In this document: positions 3,858-25,725 of the stretch, piece by piece
How the letters are laid out: every line of letters begins with the position of its first letter
Numbering within the stretch: position 1 is the first letter of the stretch
NCBI GenBank assembly: GCA_963743355.1
Contig: CAVUPM010000001.1
Coordinates: 849,736 to 913,735 of the forward strand
DNA length: 64,000 bases
From: an uncultured Candidatus Rokubacteria bacterium
GTDB lineage: Bacteria; Methylomirabilota; Methylomirabilia; Rokubacteriales; CSP1-6
Reading direction: 5' to 3'
Made by a program: the position numbers and the translations under genes
Notes under the pieces: generated by a model
Seen by the model: the letters and a program-made list of their open reading frames with translations, nothing else
Databases searched by the model: none
Told to the model about the DNA's origin: nothing

Positions 3858-3947
3858 CGGGCCGCCGTCCATGCACGCGCGGTGCCGTCGAGGCCGCCTC
3901 CGCCCCGATTTACCGGCTCCGGCAGCGGTGTGAGAGCATGGAGCGGC

Positions 3948-5735
3948 ATGCTGAATGACGTTCGGGCGTGCCTGGGGTTGCTGTCGCCGCAGGCGCGCTG
4001 GCGCTGGGCCGCGTTGATCCCGCTCGCGCTGGCCTCGGCCGCGGCGGAGGCGGTCGGCGCCGGGGCGGCGTTCGGGTTGATCACGATCCTGGGCGATCCC
4101 GCGCGGGCCGCGACCCTGCCGGTCGCCTCGTGGATCTTCCCCCACCTGCCCTCGCACGACGCCTCGACGGTCATCCTGGCCTTCACGCTGCTGGTCATGG
4201 CGTTCTACATCGCCCGCAACGCGCTGCTGGCCGTGGTGACCTGGGTGCAGGAGCAGGCGCTGAGCGTCTCCGTGCAGCAGCTCTCCCACCGCCTGCTCGC
4301 CGCCTACCTGGCCGCCCCGTACGCGTTTCACGTTCGCCACAACTCGGCGGGGCTCATCCACCGGGTGACCGACGCCGCGCACAGCGTCTTCCGCGGCGTG
4401 CTCGGCTCGCTGGTCAGCGTGACGTGCGAGGCGCTGGTCGTGGCCGGCATCGTCGTCATCCTCGCGCTGACGGCACCGGGCGTGACCCTGGTGGCGGTCG
4501 TCGTGGTGGGCGGGCTACTGCTGCTGCCGCTGACGCTGTCGCGCCACGCCACCGCGCGCTGGGGGCAGGCGGTCGCGCGGCTCGACGGCGAGACGCTGCA
4601 GACGCTGCAGCAGAGCCTGGGCGGCGTGAAGGAGGTCAAGCTCAGCGGGCGCGAGAGCTTCTTCCTCGCCCAGTTCGACGAGCGGGTGGCGGGCGCGGCG
4701 CGCCTGCGCACGCGGTACGCCGCCGTCGCCTCCACCCTGAGGATGGGGGTCGAGACCGTCTTCGTGTGCGGCCTGCTCGCGGTGAGCCTGCTCCTCACCC
4801 TCGAGAGCGGCGCCGCCGCCCTGCCGCTGCTGGGCCTCTACGCGTACGCCGGCTTCCGGGTGATCCCATCGGCCAACCGCATCATGATGTACGTCAGCGA
4901 GCTGCGCTACAGCCGTGCCTGGATCCACGACCTGCGCGACGACCTCGCCGCCCTGCCCCCGCCGGCGCCGCCGACCGGCCCCGGCGCGCCCGAGCCGATC
5001 CGCTTCACCCGCGCCGTCGCGCTCGAGGGGGTGTCCTACACCTACGCGGACGAGGCGGACCCAGTGCTGGTCGACGTGAACCTCACGATCGCCCGAGGCG
5101 AGTCGATCGGGATCGTCGGGCCGTCGGGCGCCGGCAAGAGCACGCTGGTGGACCTGCTCCTCGGCCTGCTGACGCCGACGTCCGGGCGGATCACCGTCGA
5201 CGGGCGCGCCATCACCGGCGCGCTGCGCTCGTGGCAGCGGCACATCGGCTACGTCGCCCAGGAGCCGTTCGTCCTCGACGACACGCTGCGCCGCAACGTC
5301 GCCTTCGGCGTCGCCGACGCCGAGATCGACGACCGCCGGGTGGGCGCGGCGCTGCGGCTGGCCCAGCTCGCCGACTTCGTGACGGGCCTGCCGCAGGGGA
5401 TCGACACCATGCTCGGCGAGCGCGGCACGCGGCTGTCGGGCGGGCAGCGCCAGCGGGTGGCGATCGCCCGCGCGCTCTACGACGAGCCGGAGGTGCTGGT
5501 CTTCGACGAGGCCACCTCCGCGCTCGACACGCCCACCGAGCGGGAGCTGATCGCGGCGCTGGAGGCCCTGCGCGGCGTGAAGACGCTGGTGGTCATCGCG
5601 CACCGGCTCACGACCGTGCGCCGCTGCGACCGCCTGGCCGTGCTGCGCGACGGGCGGCTGGCGGCGGTCGGGCCCTACGACGAGCTGCTCGAGCGCGACG
5701 CCGGCTTCCGCGCCATGGCCGGCTCAGCCCCGTGA
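3948..5735 (+). CDS. ABC exporter (TMD+NBD), PglK/HetA-like lipid-linked oligosaccharide flippase
   Basis: 6 TM segments; Walker A GPSGAGKST, LSGGQRQR, VFDEATSALD; GGVKEVKL and YAGFRVIPSANRI segments typical of the PglK-like subfamily; adjacent to glycosyltransferases. Confidence 0.8.
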   Translation: MLNDVRACLGLLSPQARWRWAALIPLALASAAAEAVGAGAAFGLITILGDPARAATLPVASWIFPHLPSHDASTVILAFTLLVMAFYIARNALLAVVTWVQEQALSVSVQQLSHRLLAAYLAAPYAFHVRHNSAGLIHRVTDAAHSVFRGVLGSLVSVTCEALVVAGIVVILALTAPGVTLVAVVVVGGLLLLPLTLSRHATARWGQAVARLDGETLQTLQQSLGGVKEVKLSGRESFFLAQFDERVAGAARLRTRYAAVASTLRMGVETVFVCGLLAVSLLLTLESGAAALPLLGLYAYAGFRVIPSANRIMMYVSELRYSRAWIHDLRDDLAALPPPAPPTGPGAPEPIRFTRAVALEGVSYTYADEADPVLVDVNLTIARGESIGIVGPSGAGKSTLVDLLLGLLTPTSGRITVDGRAITGALRSWQRHIGYVAQEPFVLDDTLRRNVAFGVADAEIDDRRVGAALRLAQLADFVTGLPQGIDTMLGERGTRLSGGQRQRVAIARALYDEPEVLVFDEATSALDTPTERELIAALEALRGVKTLVVIAHRLTTVRRCDRLAVLRDGRLAAVGPYDELLERDAGFRAMAGSAP

Positions 5736-6878
5736 CGTAGCCGCCGCCGCGATCACCGCCCGGAACTCCCGCACGAAGGTCTCGGTCGAGAAGCGGCGCG
5801 CCTGGACGGCGAGGCGCCCGCGCAGGTCCGCCTCCTCGCCGGGATCGCGCATGGTACGCAGGATGCTGGCCGCCGCGCTCTCCACCGTGTCGTAGCGCAG
5901 CCGCGGATCGCCCACGATCTCCACCTGGCCGCCGTCGTTGGGCACCCACACGATGCAGCCGGCGTGCACCATCTCGGCCACGACCATGCCGTAGTGCTCG
6001 TTGAGGTGGCCGTGGATGCCGTAGCGGTGCCGCGCCATCAGCGCCGCCAGCGCCTCGCGCGACAGCCCCGACTCCAGCGTGATCCACGGCCCCTCGGCGC
6101 GGACCCGGGCGGCGATGCGCTCGGCGTAGGCGCCCTCCGGCGTGCCGACGATGCGCAGCCGGGTGTCGGGGATCTCGGCCCGCACGCGGGCGAGGATGTC
6201 GATCACGCGGTCGAGCTGCTTGTCGGGCGCGATCCGGCCGACGCAGAGGAACGTGCGCTCCCGTGCCGGCCAGTCCACCGCGGGGAAGCTCCCCATGACC
6301 GGCGGGTACAGCGTGCGGGGGACGAGGCCGTAGCGCTGGTCGACGAGGCGGCCGACGTAGTCGGAGCTCACCAGCGCGGGTGTCTGGCGCATCCGCTCGT
6401 CCGAGAACTCCGCCAGCCGGATGCACAGCTCGCGGTACGCGGTAACGAGGCCCCGCCAGTGATACCAGCGTGTCTCCAGCGCCGGCCGTGGCAGCAGGTC
6501 CCATGGGTAGTTGATGTACTGCACGCCTTGGGGGCCGAAGTCGGCCTCGTTGTCGCCGGTCAGCAGCACGTCGAAGTCGCGCGCCCGGCGCTTGGCCAGG
6601 CGCAGCAGGATGGCGGTGCGCAAGAGATAGATCGGAGCCGGGATCGCCTCGATCAGCATGCGCAGCGCCGGCGCCGGCCGGGCCAGCGTGAAATCCTGGG
6701 GGCGCAGGGTGGTGCCGAAGAATTGGTTGAGGGCGTTGAGGTCCGGCCGGTGCCAGGACAGCAGCGTGACCGCGTGGTCATCCTTGAGCGCCTCGACCAT
6801 CCAGGCGGCGACGCCGGCCGAGCCGCCCGGCGGCGCCAGCTCGCGCTGCACGAGCAGGACGCGCGGCCGGCGCGTCAC
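5724..6878 (-). CDS. GT4 glycosyltransferase, ALG11-like (putative alpha-1,2-mannosyltransferase)
   Basis: GTG start overlaps the upstream TGA; QYINYP, LYPP, VGRIAPDK, GIHGHLNEHYGMVVAEMVHAG..PNDGG resemble ALG11 YVHYP / GLHxMWNEHFGIxVVExMAAG. Confidence 0.7.
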   Translation of the reverse strand: MTRRPRVLLVQRELAPPGGSAGVAAWMVEALKDDHAVTLLSWHRPDLNALNQFFGTTLRPQDFTLARPAPALRMLIEAIPAPIYLLRTAILLRLAKRRARDFDVLLTGDNEADFGPQGVQYINYPWDLLPRPALETRWYHWRGLVTAYRELCIRLAEFSDERMRQTPALVSSDYVGRLVDQRYGLVPRTLYPPVMGSFPAVDWPARERTFLCVGRIAPDKQLDRVIDILARVRAEIPDTRLRIVGTPEGAYAERIAARVRAEGPWITLESGLSREALAALMARHRYGIHGHLNEHYGMVVAEMVHAGCIVWVPNDGGQVEIVGDPRLRYDTVESAAASILRTMRDPGEEADLRGRLAVQARRFSTETFVREFRAVIAAAATSRG

Positions 6879-7822
6879 CGCACGCGCAGGGTCGTGAGCG
6901 CCAGCAGCGAGAAGGAGATCGAGACGCCGTAGAGCAGCAGCACGGCCTTGCGGTGCGACAGGCCGAGGCCGAGCAGGCGGTGGTGCACGTGCTGCTGGTC
7001 GGCGAGGAACACGTGGCGCAGCCCCTGCCCGCGCAGGCGGCGCACCACCGAGTGCAGCGTCTCGGAGATCGGAAGGGCGAAGAGCAGCAGCGGTCCGATC
7101 ACCACCAGCGCGGTCGCGCCCTTCTGGAAGCTGGTGATGGCGGTCACCGCCAGCACGTAGCCGACCACGAGGCTGCCGGAGTCGCCGAGGAAGATGGTCG
7201 CGGGGTTGAAGTTGTAGGGCAGGAAGCCGCACAGCGCCCCCAGCAGCACCACGAGCAGCATCCCGCCCTGGACGTCGTCGCGCGCCAGCGAGACCACCGC
7301 GCACGTCGCCGCCGCGATGATGGCCAGGCCGGTGGCGAGGCCGTCGAGCCCGTCCATGACGTTGAAGGCGTTGGTGAGCCCGACGAGCCACAGGATGGTC
7401 AGCGGCACCGCGAGCAGGCCGAGCCCGAGCGTCGAGCCGAAGAACGTGACGTGCTCGATGCGGACGCCGAGGGCAACGGTGACGCCGGCGCCGGCGAGCT
7501 GGACCGCGAGCTTCACCCGCGCCGGCAGCGGCCGCACGTCGTCCCAGAGCCCGATCCCGAAGACGAGCGCGCCACCGAGCAGGACGGGCAGCCATGACTG
7601 CACGTCGGCGGCACTCGCGTGGCCGGTGGCGGCGGTCGCCGCCAGCACGAGCACCATGGCGAGGACGACGCCGACGCCCCCGACGCGCGGGATCGAGACG
7701 GTGTGGATCTTGCGCCCGCCCGGCGCGTCGACCAGGTTGAAGCGGCGCGCGAGCGCGCGCACGACCGGCGTGAGGGCGAGCGCCAGCAGCGCCGCCGCCC
7801 CGATCAGCAGCAGGTGGATCAC
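6875..7822 (-). CDS. Polyprenyl-phosphate GlcNAc-1-phosphate transferase (WecA/TagO type, PNPT family; ALG7-equivalent step)
   Basis: DAPGGRKIH..PRVGG, GLWDD, NAFNVMDGLDGLA, FLPYNFNPATIFLGDSGS, DQQHVHHRL; multi-TM. Confidence 0.9.
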   Translation of the reverse strand: MIHLLLIGAAALLALALTPVVRALARRFNLVDAPGGRKIHTVSIPRVGGVGVVLAMVLVLAATAATGHASAADVQSWLPVLLGGALVFGIGLWDDVRPLPARVKLAVQLAGAGVTVALGVRIEHVTFFGSTLGLGLLAVPLTILWLVGLTNAFNVMDGLDGLATGLAIIAAATCAVVSLARDDVQGGMLLVVLLGALCGFLPYNFNPATIFLGDSGSLVVGYVLAVTAITSFQKGATALVVIGPLLLFALPISETLHSVVRRLRGQGLRHVFLADQQHVHHRLLGLGLSHRKAVLLLYGVSISFSLLALTTLRVR

Positions 7823-8919
7823 CAGCGGTCCGTCATCAAGATCTCGCAGTCGGCCACGATGCGCGCCGCGGCGTCCGGCCGCGCGAGCCGCCGCGCGGCG
7901 GCAGCGGCAGCCGTCCAGCCCGCCTCGCCGAGGAGCGCGGCCACCCGGGCGGCGAGCGGGTCGCGCCGCCACTCGGCTTCGCGGACGACGACCCCGGCAC
8001 CGGCGGCGGCGAAGGCGACCGCGTTGGCGGCCTGGTGATCGCCGGGGGCATCGGTCAGCGGCACCAGCAACGCGGGCACGCCGGCGGCGGCGACCTCGGC
8101 AATCGTACCCGCGCCCGAGCGGGCGACGACGAGGTCGGCCCAGCGATACGCGCTGGCGATCTCGTCGAGGTACGGCGCCACCGTCGCCTTCACGCCGGCC
8201 AGCCGGTACGCGTGGGCCACCCAGTCCGCGGCGAGCTGCCCCGACTGGTGCAGCACCTCGACGGCGACGCCGCGCCGCTCGACAGCGGCCAGCAGGTCAG
8301 GGACGCGCTCGGCCAGGAACCGCTCGCCGCGCGTGCTGCTCAGCACCAGCACGCGCGCGAGGCGATCGCGGTCGGGCGCCGCCCGCCGCTCGCCGGCCAG
8401 CGCGGCGATGTCGGCGCGCACGGGGTGGCCGGTCACCAGCGGGTCGCGGGCCGCCAACGCCGGCGCGGCGGCGGCGAACCCCAGGTAGACGCGGTGCGCG
8501 AATGGCGCGAGCAGGCGGTTGGCGAGGCCGGGAACGACGTTCGCCTCGTGGATCACGACCCGCGCCCCCAGCGTGCGCGCGGCCAGCAGGATCGCGCCCG
8601 ACGCGTAGCCGCCGACACCGAGGACCAGCCGGGTGTGCCGCGCCCGCAGCACCCGTCGCGCCTGGAGCAGGCCGGTCACGACCCGGCCCGCCGCGGCGAG
8701 CCGGGCGCCGGGCCCCACGTTCACGAGCGGCGAGGCGCTCACCGGCTCCAGCGCGTAGCCGGAGCGGCCGAGCAGTCGCGCCGCCAGCGGATCGAGCGCC
8801 CCGGCGAAGCGCACCTCCACGTCGGCATACCGTGCGCGATAGGCCTCGGCGATCGCGAGGGCCGGGTACACGTGGCCGGCGGTGGGACCGACGGCGATCA
8901 GGAGGCGTCGGCGCGGTAT
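7819..8919 (-). CDS. MurG-like GT28 GlcNAc transferase outside a dcw cluster (putative ALG13/14-equivalent)
   Basis: GPTAGHVYPALA, GGYAS, HEANVVPGLANR, RSGAGTIAE, DHQAANA; start inferred at an ATA codon 6 nt after GAGGAG. Confidence 0.8.
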   Translation of the reverse strand: MPRRRLLIAVGPTAGHVYPALAIAEAYRARYADVEVRFAGALDPLAARLLGRSGYALEPVSASPLVNVGPGARLAAAGRVVTGLLQARRVLRARHTRLVLGVGGYASGAILLAARTLGARVVIHEANVVPGLANRLLAPFAHRVYLGFAAAAPALAARDPLVTGHPVRADIAALAGERRAAPDRDRLARVLVLSSTRGERFLAERVPDLLAAVERRGVAVEVLHQSGQLAADWVAHAYRLAGVKATVAPYLDEIASAYRWADLVVARSGAGTIAEVAAAGVPALLVPLTDAPGDHQAANAVAFAAAGAGVVVREAEWRRDPLAARVAALLGEAGWTAAAAAARRLARPDAAARIVADCEILMTDRW

Positions 8920-8949
8920 GGTAGGCTCCTCGTGGCTTCGCAGCGTTCT

Positions 8950-10173
8950 ATGCGCGTCACCACGGTGGTTCTCGGCGATCTCGGGCGCAGTCCCCGCATG
9001 CAGTACCATGCGGAAGCCCTCGCGGCCCATCACGTCGACGTGGACGTCGTCGCCTGCGGGGGCAGTGCCGTTCACGCGGAGCTGCGCGTCCATCCGCGGA
9101 TCACCTGTCACTTGCTGCCTCCGGCACGCGAGCGATCCCTGCCCCGCGGGCTGCTCTTGCCGGCCGCCATCTGGAGGGCCGTCGTCCAAGCACTCTGGCT
9201 AGTCTGGATGTTCGTGGCCGTTTTGCGCAAGCCTGACGTGATCCTCGTCCAGAACCCACCGGCCATCCCGACCCTCCTGGTGGTTCTGACCGCCGCCCGG
9301 CTCAGGGGCGCGCGCCTCGTCGTGGACTGGCACAACCTCGCGTGGGCGGTGCTGGCCCTCGGCATCGGCGCCCGCCACCCGGGCGTGACCCTGGCCCGCT
9401 GGTACGAGGGCGTCCTCGGCCGCCGCGCCGACGCCCACCTGTGCGTGTCGGACGCGCTCGCGGCCGAGCTGACGCGCTGGGGCATGCGCCCGGTCAGCGT
9501 CCTGCGCGACCGTCCAGCCGCGCGCTTCGCGCCGCTCGACGCCGCCGCCCGGCACGTCGTGCGCCGCCGGCTCGTGGCCACGCTCGGCCTGGGAGACCGG
9601 GAGCCGGCAATCGTCGTGAGCCCGACCTCGTGGACGCGCGACGAGGACTTCGAGCTGCTGCTCGAGGCGGTTCGACGGTGCGAGGCGCTGGTGCAGGGTC
9701 GCGCGTTTCCCGAGGTGCTCGTGCTGCTCACCGGACGCGGCGCCCGGCGGGCGGGTTTCGAGGCGAGGGCGGCCGCGCTGGCCGGCCGGCGCATCCACGT
9801 GCGGACCACGTGGCTCGAGCCCGACGACTACCCGCGCGTGCTGAGCGCCGCCGACCTCGGCCTCTGCCTGCATCGCTCGGCCTCGGGTCTCGATCTGCCG
9901 ATGAAGATCGTCGACCTGCACGGGGCCGGGCTGCCGGTGTGCGCGCTCGACTACGGGCCGTGCCTGGACGAGATGCTCCGCCACGACGACACCGGCCTGC
10001 GCTTCGCCGACGCCGAGACGCTGGCCCGCCAGTGGGTGGCCCTGCTGGCGACGTTCCCCGGCCCCACGCCGGAGCTCGACCGGCTGCGCGCCAACGTGGA
10101 GAAGGCCCGCGGCACCACGTGGCGCGCGGGCTGGGAGGCCGAGGCCCGGGAGATCCTGCTCGCGCATGCGTGA
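8950..10173 (+). CDS. alg1: ALG1-like GT33 beta-1,4-mannosyltransferase
   Basis: VLGDLGRSPRMQYHA, LVQNPPAIPTL, VDWHN, VSPTSWTRDEDF, WLEPDDYP..LSAADLGLCLHRSASGLDLPMKIVD match eukaryotic ALG1 signature blocks. Confidence 0.92.
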   Translation: MRVTTVVLGDLGRSPRMQYHAEALAAHHVDVDVVACGGSAVHAELRVHPRITCHLLPPARERSLPRGLLLPAAIWRAVVQALWLVWMFVAVLRKPDVILVQNPPAIPTLLVVLTAARLRGARLVVDWHNLAWAVLALGIGARHPGVTLARWYEGVLGRRADAHLCVSDALAAELTRWGMRPVSVLRDRPAARFAPLDAAARHVVRRRLVATLGLGDREPAIVVSPTSWTRDEDFELLLEAVRRCEALVQGRAFPEVLVLLTGRGARRAGFEARAAALAGRRIHVRTTWLEPDDYPRVLSAADLGLCLHRSASGLDLPMKIVDLHGAGLPVCALDYGPCLDEMLRHDDTGLRFADAETLARQWVALLATFPGPTPELDRLRANVEKARGTTWRAGWEAEAREILLAHA

Positions 10174-12421
10174 GCGCCTGGCCGCGCGGGGCCACTGGTG
10201 GCTGGTGGCCGCCCTCGTCGTCGTCGCCTTCCTGGCCCGCACGGTGTTCCTCTTCGGCGCGGTGTTCACCAGCGCCGGCGTGAACTACCAGGACAGCGAC
10301 GCCTGGTACCACATGCGCCTCATCGAGAACCTCACGCGCAACTTCCCGCACCGCGCGAGCCTCGATCCGTACCTCGGCGCCGACGCGCCGGTGGTCGCGG
10401 TGCCGCTGCTCTTCGATCTCGCGGTCGGCGGGCTCGCGTGGGTGCTCGGGCTGGGCGCGCCGTCCACGCGAACGGTGGAGGTGGTGGGCGCACTGGTGCC
10501 GCCGATCCTCGGCGCGCTGACGCTCGTGCCGGTCTTTCTCATCGGCGAGCGGCTCTTCGACCGCCGCACCGGTCTGCTGGCCGCCGGCCTGCTGGCGATC
10601 ATGCCCGGCCAGTTCCTGGCGCGCTCCGTCCTCGGCTTCGCCGACCATCACGTGGCCGAGGCCTGCCTCACCGCGCTCACCGTGCTCGCGTGTCTGTACG
10701 CGCTCGACGCCCAGACACCGCGCCGGCGGCTCCTCGGGGCGGCGCTGACCGGCGTGGCGCTCAGCACCTACCTCATGGCCTGGAGCGGCGGCGCCTTGCT
10801 CGTCTTCGTGCTGTGCGCGTGGGGGGCGACGCAGTACATCCTGGACGACTTCCATCGCGTGGCCGACGACCGCGTGCTGCCGGTGCTGCTGCCGGCGCTG
10901 GCGATCGCGGTGGTCGTCCTGCTCGGATTGCAAGATCGCAATCTCTGGCGCTTCGCCATCCAGGTGACCTCGGTCGTGGCCGGCCTGGTGTTCGTCGTGG
11001 CGATGGCGGCCGGCCGCCGCCTCCTGCGCGCGCTGTCGGCCCCGCGCGGCGCGCTGCTGGCGTGCGCGGTCGTCATCGCCGTCGTGGGTACGGTGCTCTT
11101 CACCCTCGTGGCGCGCGATCTGACGGCACGCATCCTGTCCGACCTGCAGCGCTTCCGGCCCGGCCACACCGGGTTCACCGTGAGCGAGGTGCGCCCGCTG
11201 CTGCTCATGACGGGCTCGCTGTCCTTCGCGGTCCCCTTCGGCGTGTTCGGGCCGGCGTTCTTCGTCAGCCTGCCCGCGCTCGGCTGGCTCGCCTGGACGG
11301 CCGCGCGCACGGCCCGGCCCCCGCTGGTGCTCCTGGTGATCTGGAGCGTGCTGATGTACGCCGCCACGCTCGGGCAAAACCGCTTCGGCTACTACCTGAA
11401 CCTCGACCTCGCGCTGCTGGCCGGCTGGGCGTGCGGGATGGCGCTGGCCTGGGGCTGGGCGCCGCCGGCCGCCGCCCGCTCGCGCGCCGACGCGCGACGC
11501 GCGCGCGATCGCGCCGGCGCGCTCCCCGGCGGCTCCTGGGGGCTGCTGCGCCGCCGCATCGCGGCGGTGGCGGCCGTCGTCGCGGTCGTGTTCGCGCCCA
11601 GTGCCCTGGTCGCGCGCCCGATGGCCAGCAACAACCTGGGGCTCAGCGACGGCTACCGCGCCTCGCTCGAGTGGCTGCGCCGCAACACGCCGGAGCCGTT
11701 CCCCGATCCGGACTACTACTACGCGCGCTATCGCGCCGGCCAGACGCTGGCCCCGGCCTACACGGTGATGTCCTGGTGGGACTACGGCTACGAGATCATC
11801 CGCCTGGGGCGGCGGGTGCCGGTCGCCAACCCCACCCAGGCCGGCGCCGACGTCGCCGGGCGCTTCTTCACGGCGACCGACGAGGCGGAGGCGGCGAAGA
11901 TCCTCGACGAGCACAAGGCGCGCTACGTGGTCGCCCACGGTGAGGTGCCGATCCTGCCGCGCGGCGGGCTCGTGCAGGGCAAGTTCGAGACGCTGGCGGC
12001 GTGGGCGGGCAAGGACATCAACCGGTACTGGGAGACGTTCCTCACCAAGGACGCCAAGGGCGCACTCGGCCCGCTGGTCCTGTTCCACCCGGAGTACTAC
12101 CGGACACTGGCCGTGCGCCTCTACGTGTACGGCGGCGCCGCGGCGGTCCCCCAGGACACGACGTACGTCGTCGCCTACGTCGAGCGGCAGATGCCGGACG
12201 GCACGCGCGGCAAGGAGATCCTGGAATCGCGGCGGTTCAAGACCTACGAGGGGGCCGTCGCCTATCTCGACCGCTTCGGTCACACCGGGCGCACCATCGT
12301 CGGCCTCGATCCCAAGCAGACGCCGGTCCCGATCGAGCGGCTGACGCGCTTTCGCTTCCTGCACGAGTCGCCGGGCGCGGCGCCGGCTGTGCGCATCTTC
12401 GAATACCCCGGCCGCAGCTGA
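10166..12421 (+). CDS. aglB: STT3/AglB family oligosaccharyltransferase (archaeal AglB-like)
   Basis: DSDAWYH, GFADHH, TVSE, QNRFGYY, SWWDYG, VANPTQAG; polytopic N-terminal region and soluble C-terminal domain. Confidence 0.93.
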   Translation: MRERLAARGHWWLVAALVVVAFLARTVFLFGAVFTSAGVNYQDSDAWYHMRLIENLTRNFPHRASLDPYLGADAPVVAVPLLFDLAVGGLAWVLGLGAPSTRTVEVVGALVPPILGALTLVPVFLIGERLFDRRTGLLAAGLLAIMPGQFLARSVLGFADHHVAEACLTALTVLACLYALDAQTPRRRLLGAALTGVALSTYLMAWSGGALLVFVLCAWGATQYILDDFHRVADDRVLPVLLPALAIAVVVLLGLQDRNLWRFAIQVTSVVAGLVFVVAMAAGRRLLRALSAPRGALLACAVVIAVVGTVLFTLVARDLTARILSDLQRFRPGHTGFTVSEVRPLLLMTGSLSFAVPFGVFGPAFFVSLPALGWLAWTAARTARPPLVLLVIWSVLMYAATLGQNRFGYYLNLDLALLAGWACGMALAWGWAPPAAARSRADARRARDRAGALPGGSWGLLRRRIAAVAAVVAVVFAPSALVARPMASNNLGLSDGYRASLEWLRRNTPEPFPDPDYYYARYRAGQTLAPAYTVMSWWDYGYEIIRLGRRVPVANPTQAGADVAGRFFTATDEAEAAKILDEHKARYVVAHGEVPILPRGGLVQGKFETLAAWAGKDINRYWETFLTKDAKGALGPLVLFHPEYYRTLAVRLYVYGGAAAVPQDTTYVVAYVERQMPDGTRGKEILESRRFKTYEGAVAYLDRFGHTGRTIVGLDPKQTPVPIERLTRFRFLHESPGAAPAVRIFEYPGRS

Positions 12422-12582: not shown

Positions 12583-13779
12583 CTACCGCGGGCGAGTGAG
12601 GGCGCGCAGCGAGGTTTCGAGGCGGTCGCCGAATGCGCGGCGAGAGAAGCGCTTGCGCACGTGCGTCCAGCCGGCCTGGCCCATGCGCTGGGCGGCGGCG
12701 GGATCGCCGAGCGCTTTGGCCAGGGCGTCGGCGAACGCTTCGGGACGCGGGTCCGCGAGCCAGCCGGTTTCGCCGTGCACGATCGTCTCCGTCGGGCCAC
12801 CGCGGTTCACGGCGATCACGGGCCGGGCGGCGGCCATCGCCTCCAGCGGCACGAGGCCGAAGTGCTCGGCCAGCGGCGTGTAGACGACGCAGGCCGCGCG
12901 GGCGAGCAGCGCGCGCCGCTCGGCGTCGGATGGTGAGCGCACGAGCGAGACGTGGCCCTCGAGGCCGAGCCCAGCCGCGCGGGCCTCGAGGTCGCGCGCC
13001 AGCGCCTGGGACTCGCCCAGGCGCGGGTCGACGTGGCCGGCCAGCACGAGACGGACGGCGGCGAACGCCGCCGGCGCCAGGCGCGCGCGCAGCGCGGCCA
13101 CGGCGTCGATCGCGAGCGCCAGGTTCTTGCCGGGATCGAACCGGTTGACGGACAGCACCAGCGCCTCGCCCGCGGGCGCCGGCGGCGGCGTGTCGGCGAC
13201 CGCCACGCCCGGATACACCACCTCGATGCCCCCGATCGGCAGCCGCGGGAACGTCGCCCGCACGACGGAGGCGCTGAAGCGGCTGTTGACCAACACGCGG
13301 TCGGCGGCCTGCAGCCCGGCCGCTTCCAGGCGGTCGATCGGCGCCCGGTAGAGCGCGTAGAGCCCGCGCCGGCGCGGCGCCAGCAACAGGTCGGGAAAGT
13401 TGCAGTAGACGGCGACCGGCACCCGCACGAGGCGTCGCAGGAGCGGGATCACGTGCGGCACGAGGTCGCACAGAACGATGTCGGGCGTCGGCACCGTCCG
13501 GGCCAGCGCGCGCGCCACCCACGCGGCGCGCACGATCGCCGCCGGCGCCCGCAGCCGCTGGACGAGCTGCGTCGGCAGCAACCGCCCGACGGCGACGACG
13601 CGCACGAGCCCCGCGCGAACCTCGTCGAGCTGCGCTTCCTTGCGGTCCCCCACGAATAGTGTGACCGCGTGACCGCGGGCGCCAAGCTCGAGCGCGGCGT
13701 CCACCACGAGGCGCTCGGCCCCACCGATGCCCAGGGCGGGTCGCAGGAAGGCGATGTTGAGCGGTCGATCGCGGGTCAT
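12583..13779 (-). CDS. alg2: ALG2-like GT4 alpha-1,3/1,6-mannosyltransferase
   Basis: FLRPALGIGGAERLVVDAA, YCNFPDLLL, LYRAPIDRLE, VNSRFS, SVNRF..KNL, YTPLAEHFGLVPLEAM..PVIAVNRGGPTETI are collinear with eukaryotic ALG2. Confidence 0.9.
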   Translation of the reverse strand: MTRDRPLNIAFLRPALGIGGAERLVVDAALELGARGHAVTLFVGDRKEAQLDEVRAGLVRVVAVGRLLPTQLVQRLRAPAAIVRAAWVARALARTVPTPDIVLCDLVPHVIPLLRRLVRVPVAVYCNFPDLLLAPRRRGLYALYRAPIDRLEAAGLQAADRVLVNSRFSASVVRATFPRLPIGGIEVVYPGVAVADTPPPAPAGEALVLSVNRFDPGKNLALAIDAVAALRARLAPAAFAAVRLVLAGHVDPRLGESQALARDLEARAAGLGLEGHVSLVRSPSDAERRALLARAACVVYTPLAEHFGLVPLEAMAAARPVIAVNRGGPTETIVHGETGWLADPRPEAFADALAKALGDPAAAQRMGQAGWTHVRKRFSRRAFGDRLETSLRALTRPR

Positions 13780-13971
13780 CGAGTCGTCGGAGCCCGGTAC
13801 GAGCTTATCCGCAGCCCGCTCGGCCACCGTCGATATTCGGTAGTTCCAGCGGATAGTTAAGCTTTGGCGGGATCGGCGGGGTCGCCTGCTACGATGAAGT
13901 GTTCTTCGTCCTGAACACGGCGACGCCTTCCCGGGTCGCAGGGCCGGTACGTCCGGCGGGAGCGACTGATC

Positions 13972-16900
13972 TTGGGGGGTGTCGTGGGACCGGTCCTTCC
14001 ACGCGTCGCGTACGTCGTCCTCATCCTCGCCGTCCTCGCGAGCGCCGGCTTGGCCGACGCCGGCGTCACCCCGTTCTGGCCGGAGCTCGGCGGCTCGGGC
14101 AGCGGCACCGGGGTGAGCCAGACGCCCAGCCCCAAGGGGGTCTTCGACGGCTCGATGGCCGTGGGCGGCGACGGCCGGCCGGTGATCGTGTACACCGAGT
14201 ATCCGGACGGGACGTCGGCCCAGGGCCCCATCATCGTGAAGCGATGGACGGGCTCGACGTGGGAGACTCTCGGCGGGTCGGGCCTCGGGCCGGGGTACGA
14301 GCCGCAGGTGCAGATTTCGTCGAGCGGCTCGATCTATGTCGCCTGGCTCACCGATGACGTCGACGGCAACACCGAGGTTCGCCTGCGCGTGCGGACAGGC
14401 TCGACCTTCGACGAGCTCGACGACTCCGACTCGCCCGGCGGCGTCTCGGGGCCCAACGGCGGCATCACGCCTCCCTTCTCGCTCGCCCTCAACGCGTCGG
14501 GCAACCCGATCGTGGCGTTCCTCGGCGTCGCGGAGACGGGCATCCTGGAAATGACGACACCCGCGATCGTCGACTCGACCTTCCAGGTCTACGTGCGGCG
14601 GTGGACAGGCACCGCGTGGGAGTTCGTGGGCGGCGGCTTCGCGGGTGACGACGGCTTCTCGGGCGGCGGCGCCAGCAACGCCCGCAGCTTCACGAGCCCT
14701 CTCGGGGACATCATCCACGACGCCGACACGCCCTCGCTGGCCGTGGACGAACACGGCGAGCCGGTCGTGGCGTTCACCTACTACACGTCGATCGCCGGCT
14801 CGCCGGTGGCCAACACGGACGTCTACGTCACCCGCTGGAACGGCTCGGCGTGGGTGCCGGTCGGTCCCGCGGTGCCGGCCGCGGACGGAGCGATCGGGCG
14901 CGGCGGCGCCGGCGGAATCAGCGCCAGCACCAGCGGCTCCTTCAACCCCTCGCTCGCCGCCGATGCGACGGGCAAGCTCGCGCTGGCCTGGGAAGAGGAG
15001 CCGCTGAGCGGCGGCGTCTACATCTGGGTGCGCACGTGGAACGGCACGACCTGGGTGCAGCTCGCCAACTCGGCGGCCGGCGGCGGCCTCACCCAGGTCG
15101 ATACGTTCAACAATCTGCCCCGGATCGCCATCGACACGAACGGACGTCCCATCGTCACCTGGGCGGCGCTCGTCGCGATCGAGAACCCCACGCAGATCTT
15201 CGTCCGCCGCTGGAATGGGACCAATGCATGGGACGAGCTCGGCTTCCACTCCGCCCGCGACGCCGGCGTCAGCGACGCTGCCGTTGACGCGCTCGCGCCC
15301 GCGTTGGCCCTCACACCGCCCGGTGGCACGGTGGACGCCGGCATCCCGACGATCGCCTGGCTCGACCTGCAGGAGGGCTCCTTCCAGGTCTTCCTGAGGC
15401 AGTTCTTCTCGGGGCCGAGCTTTCCGCTGACGACGCGAGTCAGCGGCAGCGGCACGCTGACTAGCGACCCGATCGGGGTGGAGTGCTCGACCAACGCGTG
15501 CGCGGCGTCGTTCCCGAGCGGGACCAGCGTCACCCTCCTGCCCGAGGCCGGATCCGGATCGGCCTTCACCGGGTGGGCAGGCGGGTGCACGGGCAGCGGC
15601 CCCTGCAGCGTGGCCATGACGGCCGCGCGCAGCGTGAACGCGAGCTTCGTCGGGGTCCGCGGCTTGACGCTCGCCGTCGCGGTTCCGGCGGGCACCCCCG
15701 TGCAGGGCACGGTCGGCAGCGTCGTCGGGCCCGCGGGCACCTGCCTCTTCGGCGGCAGTGCCGCGTGCGTCTCCGACGTGCTGCACGGCACGCGCGTGAT
15801 CCTGCAGGCGACGCCGCCGGCGGGCAATCGGTTCCTCAACTGGACGGGCGGGCCGTGCAACGGCCGCACGAACGCCACCTGCGATTTCGTCATGAACGCC
15901 AACGTGAGCACGACGGCGCTCTTCCGGGCCGTCACCGGCGTGGCCGTGGTCAAGGTGGGCAACGGCGTCGGGACCGTCACCGGGACGGGCATCAGCTGCG
16001 GCACCGATTGCTTCCAGGAAGTCTTCACGGGCACCAGCGTGACCCTGACGCCGGTGGCGGCCACGGGCAGCAGCTTCCTCGGCTGGACGGGTGACGTCTG
16101 CAACGGCCAGGTGGCCGGCGCCTGCGTGGTCCCGACCGTCGGGCAGTTGAACCGGAGCGTCACCGCGACGTTCCAGCTCAAGAGACACGCGCTGGCGGTC
16201 ACGGCTGCCAGTACCGGCGCGGCGGTCGGCTTTGCGACCAGCAGCCCCGCCGGTATCAACTGCGGCGGTCCCGACCATACACAGTGCTCGGTCGACTACA
16301 ACTACGGGACCACCGTGGTGCTGACGCCCTCCCCGGGTGCGGACAGCAAGCTGACGTCGTGGACCGGCTGCACGAGCCTGAACGGCTCGGTCTGCAACGT
16401 GCTCTTGACGGCCAACCGTACCGTCACCGCGCGCTTCGGGGAAGCGCGCACCCTGGATGTCCAGGCCTCCGGCAACGGCAGCGGCCGCATCGTGTCGGCA
16501 ACAGCACCCGGCCTGACCTGCGTCAGCAACTGCTCGGTGTCCCAACTCTATGCCGTCAACACCTCGGTCATCCTCACGCCGCAGGCGGCGGTTGGCACCA
16601 CCTTCCAGTGGGTGGGCGGCATCTGCAGCGGCAAGGCGAGCTGCACCGCTCTCATGAGTCAGAACCGCACGGCCACCGGCCAGTTCACGCTGAACCGCCA
16701 CTCGCTGGCCGTGTTCAACCGGCCCAGCGGGAGCGTCGTCAACCTCCCGCCGTTGCCGGGCGGCACGATCAACTGCGGCAGCGGCATCTCCGTCTGCGCG
16801 GGGGTTTTCGACTACGGCACGCCGGTCACCCTGCGGGCCGCGCCGAACGACGGGTTCATCTTCGTCAACTGGACCGGCGTCACGTGCGCGGGGGGGGCGA

Positions 16901-19395
16901 CCAATGCGACGTGCGCGTTCCCGCTGCGCGCCAACGTCACCGTGACGCCCAACTATCGAGCCCGTACACTGCTCACGATCGTCAAGGACGGCACCGGCGC
17001 CGGTACGGTCTCCGGGCCCGGCATCAGCTGCGGCGCCGACTGCTCGGAGGCGGCGTTCGACGGCCGCGCGGTAACGCTGCGGGCCACGCCCGCCGTGGGA
17101 TCACGTTTCCTCGACTTCGGCGGCGCCTGCGTGTCGAACACCTCGGCGTGCACCTTCCTGCCGGCCGGGAACAATCAGACCGTCACCGCAACGTTCCAGC
17201 TGATCTCCTACACCGTGACCATGCTGTCCAGGGCCAACGGAGGCGCCGTCTCCACCAACACGCTGCCGGACCCCATCGCCTGTGGCGCCGGCAGCGGCGA
17301 CTGCCTGGCGACGCTCGACTTCGGCACCCAGGTGGTGCTGCAGGCCACGCCCATCACCGGCAGCCGGTTCGTCAACTGGACCGGCACCGTCTGCAACGGC
17401 TCGACGAACGCGACCTGTTCCTTCCGCATCCCGGCCGCCAACGTGTCGGTGTCGCCCAACTTCAAGGACGTCACCGCCCTCACCCTGACCAAGAGCGGCG
17501 CCGGCGGCACGATCGTGTCCACGCCGGCCGGTATCAGCTGCGCCGGCGCGGCGTGCACCACCAGGACGTTCGACTTCGCGCGGGGCATCCTGGTCAGGCT
17601 CACGCCGACGACGGCGGTCGGCTGGAACTTCGACGGGTTCTCCGGCGACTGCTCGGGCGCCACCTGCGCGGTCAACGCGAGCGCGCCGACCGCGCTGGTC
17701 GCCGCCAGCTTCTCGATCCAGCAGCGGCGGCTCACGGTCACCGTGGTCGGCCAGGGCGGCGTGAGCGGCCCCGGCGCTGCCTGTGACACGGGGAGCACGC
17801 CCTGCGCCCTGGACTTCGACTACGGCACCAACCTGACGCTGACCGCCACCGCCGCCGCCGGCCATCGCTTCACCGGCTGGACGCAGAACTGCGCGGGCGT
17901 TCTCGTCTGCAACAACCTCATGACCGTCAACCGCTCGGTCACGGCGACGTTCAAGCCCCAGTTCGGGCTCACGGTCACCAAGCCGGGCAACAGCACCGGC
18001 ACCATCACGGCCGCGGCCAGCCCGGCCGGGATCCCCCCATTCAGTTGCGGTGTCGGCACCAACCTGTGCAGCAGCACCTACCTGGGCGGCCAGGTCGTCA
18101 CGCTGACGCGCAGCGCGCCGATCGTCTCGACGACGTTCCGCTGGGGCGGTGACTGCGCGCTCCGCGGCACCAACGCGACCTGCGCGCTGCCGCTGAACGC
18201 CAACGCCTCGGTGATCGCCGACTACAGCCTGAAGCAGCTCGGCCTCACCGTCGTCAAGGTCGGCGCGCCGCTCGGCACCGTCACCGGCCTGGCGGGCGGG
18301 ATCGCCTGCGGCAGCGACTGCACCGACGTGGTGAACTACGGCACGCTCGTGACGCTGACCGCGATCCCGAACACGCCGCCAAATCCAAACCCCGCATCCG
18401 AGTTCGTGTCGTGGGCGGGCTGTGCGACCGCCGCCACCAACGCGTCGTGCTCCTTCACGATGACCGCGAACAAGACGGTGACGGCCACGTTCCGGCCCCT
18501 CGTGAGCAGCGTCGCCCTGGACACGCTGAGCCCCAGCACGACGCTGGCCGCGGGTGGCGTCCGGCAAGTTTCGGCCACCGCGACGTTCACGGATGACACT
18601 CAGCAGGACGTCACGACTCAGGCAGCGTGGGTCTCGCTGACGCCGACGATCGCCACGGTGAACACCACCGGGCTCGTCACGGGCAAGCTCGCCGGCAACG
18701 CCAGCGTCCGGGCGACGTTCCGGTCGATCCAGAGCGCCCCCATGACGATCCCGGTGGACTCGCTGCAAGCGCTCACCGTATCGTGCGTCCCCTACGGGCA
18801 GGACGGTGGGCTGACCTGCCTGCCGAGCGCTGTGAACTTCAGCGTCCAGTGCGAGGCGCGTGGCAGGTTTCCGAGCACGGGGGTGCAGGACATCGACATC
18901 ACGGACCAGGCCACGTGGGTCTCGAGCCACCCCACGATCGCGCGGTCAACTGGTTTCGTCGGATTCAACGGGCCGATTCGCCAATCGTTCCGGATCGTGG
19001 GGAACGGGACGGCAACCCTGCGGGCCACGCAGAGCGGCAAGACCTCGCCGACGACCGGTGCGCTCGGCACCGATGCCTGGGTCGTGCAGGGCGTGGCATC
19101 GACGGTGACCAGCATCCAGGTCACACCACCGACGGGACAGGTGAGCGTCGGCGCGAATCCGCTGCTATTGAAGGCAACCGCCGCCCTGAGCAGCGTGGCG
19201 CCCGGGTGTACGTCACCGCCCTCGCGTGACTTCTCGACGGTGGTGAGCTGGGAGAGCAGCGACGAGGATCGCGCGGACGTCAGCTTCTTCGGCGAGGTCA
19301 CGGGTCTCGACCCCGGCCCCGTGACCATCACCGCGACCTACGGGAACGGCATCGTGGTCCCTCCCGACACCGCCTCCATCACCGTTGCGCCGTAG
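13972..19395 (+). CDS. Large secreted surface/adhesin-like protein: beta-propeller-like N-terminus, ~12 Cys-containing InlB-B-like repeats, ~3 Big_2-like domains; sequon-rich
   Basis: Signal peptide ending ..LADA; repeated xxRWNG/WTG blades; repeats of type G.V...GI.C...C....GT.V.L.A.P..G..F..W.G.C......C........V.A.F; C-terminal DVT..A.W.S..P.IATV..G.V. Confidence 0.85.
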   Translation: MGGVVGPVLPRVAYVVLILAVLASAGLADAGVTPFWPELGGSGSGTGVSQTPSPKGVFDGSMAVGGDGRPVIVYTEYPDGTSAQGPIIVKRWTGSTWETLGGSGLGPGYEPQVQISSSGSIYVAWLTDDVDGNTEVRLRVRTGSTFDELDDSDSPGGVSGPNGGITPPFSLALNASGNPIVAFLGVAETGILEMTTPAIVDSTFQVYVRRWTGTAWEFVGGGFAGDDGFSGGGASNARSFTSPLGDIIHDADTPSLAVDEHGEPVVAFTYYTSIAGSPVANTDVYVTRWNGSAWVPVGPAVPAADGAIGRGGAGGISASTSGSFNPSLAADATGKLALAWEEEPLSGGVYIWVRTWNGTTWVQLANSAAGGGLTQVDTFNNLPRIAIDTNGRPIVTWAALVAIENPTQIFVRRWNGTNAWDELGFHSARDAGVSDAAVDALAPALALTPPGGTVDAGIPTIAWLDLQEGSFQVFLRQFFSGPSFPLTTRVSGSGTLTSDPIGVECSTNACAASFPSGTSVTLLPEAGSGSAFTGWAGGCTGSGPCSVAMTAARSVNASFVGVRGLTLAVAVPAGTPVQGTVGSVVGPAGTCLFGGSAACVSDVLHGTRVILQATPPAGNRFLNWTGGPCNGRTNATCDFVMNANVSTTALFRAVTGVAVVKVGNGVGTVTGTGISCGTDCFQEVFTGTSVTLTPVAATGSSFLGWTGDVCNGQVAGACVVPTVGQLNRSVTATFQLKRHALAVTAASTGAAVGFATSSPAGINCGGPDHTQCSVDYNYGTTVVLTPSPGADSKLTSWTGCTSLNGSVCNVLLTANRTVTARFGEARTLDVQASGNGSGRIVSATAPGLTCVSNCSVSQLYAVNTSVILTPQAAVGTTFQWVGGICSGKASCTALMSQNRTATGQFTLNRHSLAVFNRPSGSVVNLPPLPGGTINCGSGISVCAGVFDYGTPVTLRAAPNDGFIFVNWTGVTCAGGATNATCAFPLRANVTVTPNYRARTLLTIVKDGTGAGTVSGPGISCGADCSEAAFDGRAVTLRATPAVGSRFLDFGGACVSNTSACTFLPAGNNQTVTATFQLISYTVTMLSRANGGAVSTNTLPDPIACGAGSGDCLATLDFGTQVVLQATPITGSRFVNWTGTVCNGSTNATCSFRIPAANVSVSPNFKDVTALTLTKSGAGGTIVSTPAGISCAGAACTTRTFDFARGILVRLTPTTAVGWNFDGFSGDCSGATCAVNASAPTALVAASFSIQQRRLTVTVVGQGGVSGPGAACDTGSTPCALDFDYGTNLTLTATAAAGHRFTGWTQNCAGVLVCNNLMTVNRSVTATFKPQFGLTVTKPGNSTGTITAAASPAGIPPFSCGVGTNLCSSTYLGGQVVTLTRSAPIVSTTFRWGGDCALRGTNATCALPLNANASVIADYSLKQLGLTVVKVGAPLGTVTGLAGGIACGSDCTDVVNYGTLVTLTAIPNTPPNPNPASEFVSWAGCATAATNASCSFTMTANKTVTATFRPLVSSVALDTLSPSTTLAAGGVRQVSATATFTDDTQQDVTTQAAWVSLTPTIATVNTTGLVTGKLAGNASVRATFRSIQSAPMTIPVDSLQALTVSCVPYGQDGGLTCLPSAVNFSVQCEARGRFPSTGVQDIDITDQATWVSSHPTIARSTGFVGFNGPIRQSFRIVGNGTATLRATQSGKTSPTTGALGTDAWVVQGVASTVTSIQVTPPTGQVSVGANPLLLKATAALSSVAPGCTSPPSRDFSTVVSWESSDEDRADVSFFGEVTGLDPGPVTITATYGNGIVVPPDTASITVAP

Positions 19396-24493: not shown

Positions 24494-25075
24494 TCAGAGA
24501 AGGGCGTCGTGGTAGGACGTGACCAGAACGCACGTGCAGCCGGTCTCGCTCCAGACACGATAGTCGACGCTGCCGGACTCGGCCCGGTTGTAGTCGCCGG
24601 GATAGAGCTTCCGGTCGCCGATCATCAACTCGCCGTGAAGCAGATGCAGCTCTTCAACGCCGCCATGGCGGTGGGGCGGATACTCGGTTCCCGGCGCGAG
24701 GCGCACCAACATGCTGACGCGGTTCTTCTCCGTATCGGTCGCAAGCAGCTTGCAGGAGATCCCCGGCGCCGCCACTTTCCATTCCGGTTCCGCCCATCGC
24801 TGTGGCGCTGGCAACACCGGCTCCCCGCCCGTCTCTGCGGCGATACGCTGCGCGAGACGTTCCCATAGCGGTACCGATGGGCGCAGCACGTCGGTAGGCC
24901 AGGAGACAAAGGAGTCGACGATAGGACGAAGCGTCTCCATCTCCTGCCGGCATTCCGCACACCCGGCGATATGCGCTCCGACGAGGGCCACCTCGCTCGA
25001 AGGAAGGGCCTGCAAGGCGTACAGGAACACCCGTTCGGCGTAGTCCTGACCGTGCTGGTCCGACGCTGGACTCAT
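24494..25075 (-). CDS. ChrR-like anti-sigma factor (HxxxCxxC zinc finger + cupin)
   Basis: HIAGCAEC; LVRLAPG..YPPHRHGGVEE; overlaps the sigma stop codon. Confidence 0.85.
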   Translation of the reverse strand: MSPASDQHGQDYAERVFLYALQALPSSEVALVGAHIAGCAECRQEMETLRPIVDSFVSWPTDVLRPSVPLWERLAQRIAAETGGEPVLPAPQRWAEPEWKVAAPGISCKLLATDTEKNRVSMLVRLAPGTEYPPHRHGGVEELHLLHGELMIGDRKLYPGDYNRAESGSVDYRVWSETGCTCVLVTSYHDALL

Positions 25076-25725
25076 GGTTCGTTCACTGTCTTGGCGAGCG
25101 CCTGTCGGAGTTTCAGCAATCCCGCGCGGACTCGTGTCTTGACGGTTCCGAGCGGCTGATTCAGCCGTGCCGCCACTTCGTCATACGTCAACTCGGAAAA
25201 GAATGCGGTCTCGATCACCTGTCGCTCTTCCGGCCTCAGGAGTGTCAGGGCCTTTCGCAGGAGGCGGCCCTGCTCCTTGAGATCGCAGATCTCATGGGGA
25301 TCACTCGTAGCAGCCACCGGAAGCGGGTCCTCCGCACCCTGGTTGACTCGCTTCTTCCGTTGGTCGAACCGCAACCGATCGATCGCTCTGGATCGCGCCT
25401 GGTTCATGATCCATCCGACAACGGATCCGCCCGCAGCATCGTACGTCGATGCTCGTCGCCACACGTCGTGAAACACGTCTAACGTCAGTTCTTCGGCGGT
25501 TTCCCGGTTGTTGGTGATCCGCACGATCAAGGTAAACACCATTCGATGCATGCGTTCGTACAGCGCATGCAGAGCACGCTGATCGCCCGCGGCGATCGAT
25601 TGAACGAGCCCGACCCATTCCTTCTCGGATACGGGAGTCTTTGCCCTGTCGGCATAGAGCAGATCGCCGAGGGTTCCCCTCGGGCCTTCATGTGGGTCCT
25701 GGCGCGGAGGGCTGGACGAAGGCAC
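25072..25725 (-). CDS. ECF RNA polymerase sigma factor
   Basis: LYERM, AEELT.DVF..VW, ARSRAIDR, PLGTVKTRVR. Confidence 0.9.
   Translation of the reverse strand: MPSSSPPRQDPHEGPRGTLGDLLYADRAKTPVSEKEWVGLVQSIAAGDQRALHALYERMHRMVFTLIVRITNNRETAEELTLDVFHDVWRRASTYDAAGGSVVGWIMNQARSRAIDRLRFDQRKKRVNQGAEDPLPVAATSDPHEICDLKEQGRLLRKALTLLRPEERQVIETAFFSELTYDEVAARLNQPLGTVKTRVRAGLLKLRQALAKTVNEP

Follow-up and report, generated by a model that had tools for sequence, protein, structure and literature searches.

A sequon-rich repeat protein encoded beside an archaeal-type oligosaccharyltransferase in a Rokubacteria genome is probably the main substrate of its N-glycosylation locus

The window analysed here is a stretch of 64,000 nucleotides from an uncultured Candidatus Rokubacteria bacterium (GCA_963743355.1, contig CAVUPM010000001.1, positions 849,736 to 913,735), whose genome (G000) comprises 6.19 Mb in 4 contigs. 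It encodes an AglB/STT3-type oligosaccharyltransferase (OST) and, 1.5 kb downstream, a 1807-residue protein that is rich in N-X-S/T sequons. Comparison of sequences across related genomes indicates that an archaeal-type N-glycosylation locus probably has the large protein as its principal substrate, with which it co-evolves, and that this substrate is neither the sole nor an obligatory one. The excess of sequons tracks adjacency to the OST, and for this reason we regard the large protein as the probable main target of the enzyme.

The large gene is an open reading frame (ORF) at 13972-19395 on the + strand with a stop-free translation. Thirty-six of its 80 Asn residues lie in N-X-S/T motifs in which X is not Pro (18 NXS and 18 NXT); an earlier note on this DNA, made from the letters alone, had arrived at about 36 of 80 and had proposed a comparison with shuffled sequence. 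Whole-protein shuffles gave 16.06 ± 3.48 sequons, or 16.1 against the observed 36 (z 5.7; 5.8 in our orthologue table), and none of 5000 reached 36. Shuffling within windows of 20, 40 or 90 residues gave z values of 6.0, 5.8 and 5.7, again with none of the 3000 shuffles in each set reaching that number. Control motifs were flat ([ST]-X-N, 18 against 16.0 expected; Q-X-[ST], 11 against 10.1; D-X-[ST], 17 against 15.0) and N-X-[AG] was depleted (9 against 18.1). The excess is held by the stalk of the protein (15421..18492, + strand; residues 484-1507), a series of 12 Flg_new_2 (divergent InlB B-repeat) domains with 28 sequons against 12.1 expected (z 5.3). The 7-bladed beta-propeller head (14062..15420, + strand; residues 31-483) is not enriched, with 4 sequons against 2.4 expected, and the C-terminal Big_2 region, which ends with the stop codon (18493..19395, + strand; residues 1508-1807), is weakly so, with 4 against 1.7. 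Asn makes up 4.4% of the large protein, compared with a proteome mean of 1.9%, and the proteome as a whole has no sequon excess (2671 against 2651 expected). Among 3820 crude ORF calls, a set that amounts to 68% of the genome and for which the rank holds, the large protein takes first place by excess of sequons (Poisson 1.3e-5) and also contains more of them than any other. None of the 36 sequons has Asp or Glu at position -2, as had been noticed earlier; about 2 such cases would be expected from the composition (D+E = 101 of 1807 residues; P(0) about 0.13), so that the observation stands but, taken from this protein alone, is not significant as an argument. In 43 orthologue clusters, an acidic residue at -2 is found in 20 of 1093 sequons.

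Sequon density was then compared between orthologues with and without the OST locus. Seven of the eight genome orthologues, that of the source genome included, are enriched over the whole protein (z 3.8-7.4; G010 3.8, G012 4.0, G006 5.3, G007 7.4, G004 5.7, G009 5.1). The eighth, that of G008, contains 29 Asn and 7 sequons (z 1.0). The orthologue of G003 is split by a frameshift and was kept out of this table, its repeats being counted in the OST-adjacent class; the table is also without the propeller matches G013:C589, G009:C191 and G003:C34:5279-6655, the last of which contributes its 9 Flg_new_2 repeats to the class of other Flg_new_2 proteins. Counted by repeat, the OST-adjacent genome orthologues carry 186 sequons in 90 repeats (2.07 per repeat; 71 expected), other Flg_new_2 proteins of the genus 42 in 49 (0.86 per repeat; 30 expected), the G008 orthologue 3 in 5 (0.6 per repeat; 1.9 expected) and nine relatives without an OST match 15 in 57 (0.26 per repeat; 11.4 expected). 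A Pfam check for STT3 in relatives of the last class gave no match in G018 and G038 and a sub-threshold one in G036. The comparison with homologous repeats from genomes lacking an OST, which the earlier note had also proposed, thus gives 0.26 against 2.07 sequons per repeat.

The metagenome contigs show the same pattern. The seven on which the OST locus lies upstream of an orthologue hold 81 sequons in 45 repeats (31.8 expected), whereas L180 has 2 sequons in 5 repeats and L191 none in 3, with no locus gene in the 5.0 kb and 8.6 kb of upstream sequence known for them. Pooled, the orthologues without an upstream locus have 5 sequons in 13 repeats, about 0.4 per repeat. The metagenome counts were made without L183, L189 and L192-L195, which are short or cut, and L197-L202, which are 26-32% identical. 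Over the wider family, the 43 orthologue clusters contain 1093 sequons against 508 expected, with a ratio above 1.1 in every cluster. The orthologues with few sequons include short forms of 3-5 repeats, namely L190/L191 (756 aa) and L179, L180 and G008 (about 1,170-1,200 aa). L180 and G008 have K/R/D where the long forms have Asn, and around the 756-aa form no genes of the window locus are conserved.

Alignment of the 12 repeats to a custom hidden Markov model of 79 columns bore out the recurrence at equivalent positions that had been read from the sequence before. F-x-N-W-T occurs in 3 of the 12, N-A-[TS]-C, or a motif close to it, precedes the fourth Cys in about 7, and N-x-[ST] stands six to seven residues ahead of the terminal F/Y in 10. 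Four columns are hot: 72, the turn ahead of the last strand; 62, before the fourth Cys; 53, the Gly of F-x-G-W; and 11. When the 9 sequons of repeats 6-8 were mapped manually onto an AlphaFold2 (AF2) model (pLDDT 87.8), they fell in loops, turns and strand starts, with one inside a strand, positions at which they are probably exposed. Sequon Asn residues are kept more often than other Asn residues in the more divergent of the OST-linked orthologues, those of G007 (23/35 compared with 12/43), G004 (16/28 compared with 9/37) and G009 (14/23 compared with 8/34), and no difference is seen in that of G008 (7/21 compared with 7/28). In the OST-linked orthologues X and S/T turn over and the motif persists.

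On sequence criteria the neighbouring OST (10166..12421, + strand) is of the archaeal AglB type. It matches PF02516 and PF22627 above their cut-offs and scores 477.7 bits against TIGR04154 archaeo_STT3 (cut-off 450; residues 12-747). Its closest relative of solved structure is A. fulgidus AglB-L (3WAJ/5GMY; E 1e-50, about 600 residues aligned), and the PDB search returned no PglB chain at E <= 0.01, so that the archaeal/eukaryote-type enzyme supposed earlier is upheld. In the alignment with 3WAJ the stretches SWWDYG, D-x-W-Y, G-F-x-D-H-H and T-x-x-E-V-x-P are matched; we take the acidic and His stretches to be metal-binding. The OST is the one STT3 match in the source genome. Among 40 relatives an OST was found in 10 of the 13 that belong to this genus, in none of 11 from other genera of the family and in 1 of 16 from other families of the order. 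Distant homologues, 29-37% identical, occur in many metagenome-assembled genomes of Dehalococcoidia, Chloroflexota and Planctomycetota (L097-L167), and some of these genomes have two. A number of these distant OSTs have a mild sequon excess themselves (e.g. L129, 8 against 2.8).

In several genomes of the genus the OST locus and the large gene are kept together. The orthologous proteins share 54-66% identity in the propeller. Their genes immediately follow the OST locus in G006, G007, G009, G012 and G003; in G004 and G010 the orthologue is at a contig edge and only the flanking gene for a family 4 glycosyltransferase (GT4) is visible. This GT4 gene (12583..13800 in the window) separates the OST from the large gene in G006, G007, G009 and G012 and on contigs L177, L178, L181, L182 and L184. 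A more distant relative, L196:1-21365 (OST about 46% and propeller about 42% identical), has the order cyclase, ABC, glycosyltransferases, OST, large repeat protein, TauE and thiolase; every gene on it is split over many frames, which looks like an assembly error and less like decay, and it was left out of the counts. In G008, a protein query found no STT3 and the Pfam family appeared only below threshold, there is no linked GT4 and no locus gene in 22 kb upstream, and the downstream BON gene is conserved. We put at even chances a history in which the genus acquired an archaeal AglB together with a eukaryote- or archaea-like glycan pathway and then evolved a giant main client, with Asn giving way to Asp or Lys where the locus is missing.

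Other giant secreted proteins of the source genome carry more sequons than expected: an S8 protease with CARDB domains (33 against 19.1), an M10 protease with CARDB domains (27 against 17.7) and a Calx-beta/DUF11 protein (33 against 21.8). Distant homologues of the large protein are enriched as well (e.g. 41 against 19.6 and 55 against 30.7). A cluster at G000:C1:1114567-1135279 encodes an S8 protease with 9 CARDB domains, an M10 protease with 13 and two more giant secreted proteins (1846 and 1962 aa), and these have the next-highest sequon counts of the genome; they and the Calx-beta/DUF11 protein are possible further clients of the OST. Near the start of the same contig (G000:C1:9330-10991), a series of Flg_new_2 repeats is broken up among short open frames of 106-233 aa, through either a frameshift or the misassembly of a repeat gene.

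A number of observations weigh against the large protein as the enzyme's main target. After Bonferroni correction its genome-wide P is only about 0.05. The counts come from one family in one genus, with repeats duplicated internally, and so trace to few independent events; the low-sequon cases are two lineages, the short form of G008/L180 and the 756-aa form of L190/L191, and G008, which serves as one of them, is 84% complete. The propeller-domain tree supports the orthologue clade at 100/100 and does not resolve the branching inside it, so that for G008 sequons lost once the OST had gone and sequons gained once it had been acquired would look alike. The OST-adjacent L187 has a ratio of 1.05, on a contig that is cut after 723 aa, mostly propeller. 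Paralogues in OST-bearing genomes reach z values of only 1.3-1.8. On contig L095 (1970-12931), genes for ABC, GT1, WecA-like, GT28, GT4, OST and GT4 proteins are followed by BON, with about 700 bp between the last GT4 and BON and the large gene missing, and G005 has the OST with no match to the propeller query; taken together, L095 and G005 mean that the OST must serve something besides the large protein. Beyond the genus, a scan that took in 80 loci (Dehalococcoidia, Planctomycetota and others) and their 868 ORFs of 250 aa or more found no sequon-rich neighbour beside related OSTs, strong excess being confined to 4 Rokubacteria orthologues. L091, whose OST is 50% identical, has no sequon-rich neighbour of this kind, and G035, from a second OST-bearing family, has 7 Flg_new_2 repeats with 2 sequons against 2.1 expected. 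The pairing of OST and target is thus without an independent replicate.

In two other readings the OST does not act on the large protein. The N-X-S/T motifs could be structural Asx-turns of one repeat variant that was amplified, a founder effect with no glycosylation and with the OST nearby by coincidence. Such an origin would suit the few equivalent columns in which the sequons sit, the internal duplication of the repeats and the fact that all enriched proteins belong to the one clade with 100/100 support; moreover, the S/T at +2 of the main hot spot is part of a conserved terminal strand that relatives without an OST match have too (column 74: A18, T17, S13 of 57). We nevertheless think it unlikely. 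The turn at column 72 accepts Asp, with A28, D13 and N2 among the 57 repeats of relatives without an OST match and D-D-D-D-K in L180, and next to an OST it prefers Asn (N 66/90, D 3/90), which argues against a purely structural Asx-turn. Nor is D-X-[ST] enriched (17 against 15). Four separate columns have gained Asn, among them the near-invariant Gly of F-x-G-W (G in 51/57 repeats of relatives without an OST match, N in 15/90 OST-adjacent repeats); the motif stays while X and S/T change, and orthologues of the same clade that lack the locus are not enriched. Less probable again is that the locus builds some other glycoconjugate, such as a surface polysaccharide or a lipid-linked glycan, and that the Asn-rich composition of the large protein arose from other pressures. 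The glycosyltransferases and the ABC exporter do match polysaccharide families loosely (EpsE, HepA, MsbA and PglK, all under their cut-offs), but the OST scores above the curated threshold of TIGR04154 and retains, in alignment, the catalytic stretches of AfAglB-L, and it would be left unexplained why sequon density goes with the locus.

At the other extreme, the large protein might be the only substrate, with OST, glycan pathway and gene forming one closed module. This is close to the earlier note, which had called the protein the OST's likely dedicated substrate. Its place as a substrate is favoured by the way sequon density follows locus adjacency; exclusivity goes too far. Tight and conserved synteny, divergent transcription from a 171-bp spacer, first rank for sequon excess in the genome and, one distant case aside, confinement of the OST to the genus among the 40 relatives would all fit a closed module. 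The L095 locus without the large gene, the OST of G005 without a propeller match, the mild enrichment of three other giant secreted proteins and the enrichment of several distant homologues speak against it, and we give it only a small chance, between those of the structural Asx-turns and of another glycoconjugate. The reading that we prefer remains that of a principal target but not the sole one.

The architecture of the large protein is that of an exported stalk with a head. A signal peptide is predicted at 13972..14061 (+ strand; residues 1-30, ending A-D-A before G) and is the sole hydrophobic segment, confined to residues 1-35 in a scan of the whole protein. By this heuristic, an N-terminal hydrophobic segment followed by A-D-A, the protein is probably exported to the extracytoplasmic side. 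Since there is no hydrophobic segment beyond residues 1-35, the protein has no C-terminal anchor, in agreement with the earlier note. It contains 52 Cys residues: exactly 4 in each of the 12 repeats, which is consistent with periplasmic disulfides, none in the propeller and 4 in the C-terminal region. The AF2 model of the propeller (pLDDT 83, pTM 0.88) has 28 strands, and its top Foldseek matches are GH145, PLL/PHL lectins, PL25 lyase and sialidases (TM about 0.5). A weak match to BNR_4 (PF15892) reaches 30.6 bits against 27.3, with no single stretch passing. As modelled, the head resembles sugar-binding or sugar-processing propellers. Flg_new_2 (PF18998) scores 234.1 bits (gathering score 23.6) over 9 stretches, and the custom repeat model detects all 12 repeats, of 77-91 aa each; the model of repeats 6-8 has weak fold matches, namely the stalk domains that occur in tandem in pilins and adhesins from Gram-positive bacteria. 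Big_2 (PF02368) scores 51.1 bits (gathering score 22.8) in 2 stretches of the C-terminal region. The disulfide-rich stalk and propeller head proposed from the letters are thus supported by the propeller model and the four-Cys repeats. The window has a G+C content of 72%, at which ORF starts are uncertain. Antisense open frames of up to 1372 aa overlie real genes, e.g. 12583-16701 on the - strand; these result from the high G+C, and ORF lists from such DNA need filtering by codon-position G+C.

Upstream of the large gene lie the other genes of the locus. An ABC exporter of the half-transporter type (3882..5735, + strand; Pfam ABC_membrane and ABC_tran) is the candidate flippase for a lipid-linked oligosaccharide; its best NCBIfam matches, HepA, MsbA and PglK, all fall under their equivalog cut-offs, and it is conserved in the loci of relatives. 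It is followed by a GT-B glycosyltransferase (Glycos_transf_1; 5724..6863, - strand), whose start is estimated (the listed ORF runs to 7595): the Pfam match lies in the C-terminal half of the 623-aa ORF and tblastn matches of relatives begin near residue 239-245. A WecA/Alg7-like polyprenyl-phosphate HexNAc-1-phosphate transferase (6875..7741, - strand; start estimated, listed ORF to 7972, relatives matching from residue about 78) gives E 2.7e-40 with PF00953 and 120.6 bits with TIGR02380 wecA, under the cut-off. Next to it is a second MurG-like GT28 of the MurG/Alg13-14 type (7819..8940, - strand; PF03033 and PF04101; start estimated, listed ORF to 9189), with 233.6 bits against TIGR01133 (cut-off 250.25); the canonical murG is on another contig (G000:C2:2558292-2559386, 266.4 bits). 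The position of this GT28 beside the WecA/Alg7-like gene recalls the Alg7 and Alg13/14 start of the eukaryotic pathway. A GT4-family glycosyltransferase (8902..10173, + strand; start estimated, listed ORF from 8035) has a stop that overlaps the OST start. Its Pfam match, Glyco_trans_4_4 / Glyco_transf_4, covers residues 321-489 of the longer listed frame; two relatives from the genus have it at 78-81% identity, and it has no PDB relative at E <= 0.001. The GT4 gene at 12583..13800 (- strand; Glycos_transf_1, E 1.4e-32, and Glyco_transf_4) diverges from the large gene, and the 171 bp between them (13801..13971) are presumably a shared promoter region. Searched against the PDB, the three GT-B transferases gave no match or generic GT4 matches and no ALG1/ALG2, and no GT41 member was found among the 22 ORFs scanned (window 1-32 kb). 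Beyond the locus, an ECF sigma factor and a ChrR-type anti-sigma factor (zf-HC2 and Cupin_7) are encoded at 24494-25725 on the - strand, 5 kb downstream, and genes for a cbb3-type oxidase at 29249-32268.

We propose a scheme for the preferred reading, the large protein as principal target, in which the functions of the pathway enzymes follow from family membership. The glycan would be started on polyprenyl phosphate by the WecA/Alg7-like phosphotransferase, extended by the second MurG/Alg13-14-like GT28 and the three GT-B transferases and flipped, lipid-linked, by the ABC exporter. The 1807-aa protein would leave the cytoplasm by the Sec pathway and be N-glycosylated at many of its 36 sites on the outer face of the cytoplasmic membrane, where the AglB-type OST would transfer the glycan en bloc to the Asn of N-X-S/T with no need of an acidic residue at -2. 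Within every Flg_new_2 repeat, held by its disulfides, selection would have put Asn into a few loops or turns. The product may be a disulfide-stapled stalk of 12 repeats, with about 2 glycans per repeat, below a lectin- or glycosidase-like propeller head, and the coat may serve for shielding, solubility or stiffness. The sequences themselves show how large the excess of sequons is and where it lies, the type of OST, the conserved gene order and the way sequon density varies with the locus; that a glycan is transferred, what it is made of, where the protein ends up and what its coat does are what we infer in this scheme.

Several known systems resemble parts of this arrangement. The OST falls in the same TIGR04154 subfamily as archaeal AglB, with its WWDYG aligned to that of AfAglB-L, and would share with it the minimal N-X-S/T sequon without an acidic -2 residue and a large extracytoplasmic target of surface type; the S-layer glycoprotein of Haloferax volcanii is an example of AglB-dependent N-glycosylation. 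Here, however, a bacterium (Rokubacteria/Methylomirabilota) is the host, OST and target lie side by side and vary together, and the target is no S-layer protein, combining a propeller, Flg_new_2 and Big_2 domains with disulfides and having no PGF-CTERM or other C-terminal anchor. The Campylobacter pgl system is likewise bacterial, and its locus too unites a phosphosugar transferase with GT-B transferases, a PglK-like ABC flippase and a periplasmic OST of the STT3 family. PglB requires D/E at -2, and the substrates of Campylobacter N-glycosylation are many and scattered over the genome, not one sequon-dense neighbour. The large protein does not conform to D/E-X-N-X-S/T (0/36; 20/1093 in orthologues). 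HMW1/HMW1C of Haemophilus influenzae offers another likeness, a giant adhesin-like substrate with dozens of N-X-S/T beside its transferase. HMW1C, a GT41 enzyme of the cytoplasm, transfers hexoses one at a time from nucleotide sugars, whereas the enzyme here is a membrane GT-C OST that would use a lipid-linked glycan, and GT41 was unmatched in the 22 ORFs.

To our knowledge, experimentally characterized bacterial N-linked glycosylation is essentially the PglB system with its extended acidic sequon. In the full-text literature, with subscription journals outside the search, we found no description of an archaeal-type OST with a sequon-rich client in Rokubacteria. According to one study, bacteria took their STT3 genes from archaea on at least two occasions, and archaeal-derived STT3 homologues of bacteria have been noted only in phylogenies (PMC4973528). 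ALG1/ALG2 homologues are reported in Methylomirabilota and other phyla by a preprint that tested their activities and phylogeny, and whose main text contains neither 'STT3' nor 'sequon' (bioRxiv 10.1101/2025.10.15.682550). The locus described here belongs to the same phylum as these eukaryote-like ALG genes and resembles them in having WecA/Alg7-like, MurG/Alg13-14-like GT28 and GT4-type members; PDB searches with its three GT-B transferases gave no ALG match.

An archaeal-type OST of an uncultured bacterial phylum, together with a candidate client, makes the activity and the targets of a bacterial AglB testable, and the disulfide-bonded repeat of 80-90 residues offers a small acceptor domain for assays. 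The locus may also provide a native context for the ALG-like transferases that the preprint's main text reports in Methylomirabilota (10.1101/2025.10.15.682550). If the large protein is indeed glycosylated as proposed, it would be the first bacterial N-glycoprotein of the minimal-sequon AglB type; the presence and loss of its sequons would form a readable natural record of the co-evolution of substrate and enzyme, and OST, pathway and repeat acceptor would make up a compact cassette for glyco-engineering.

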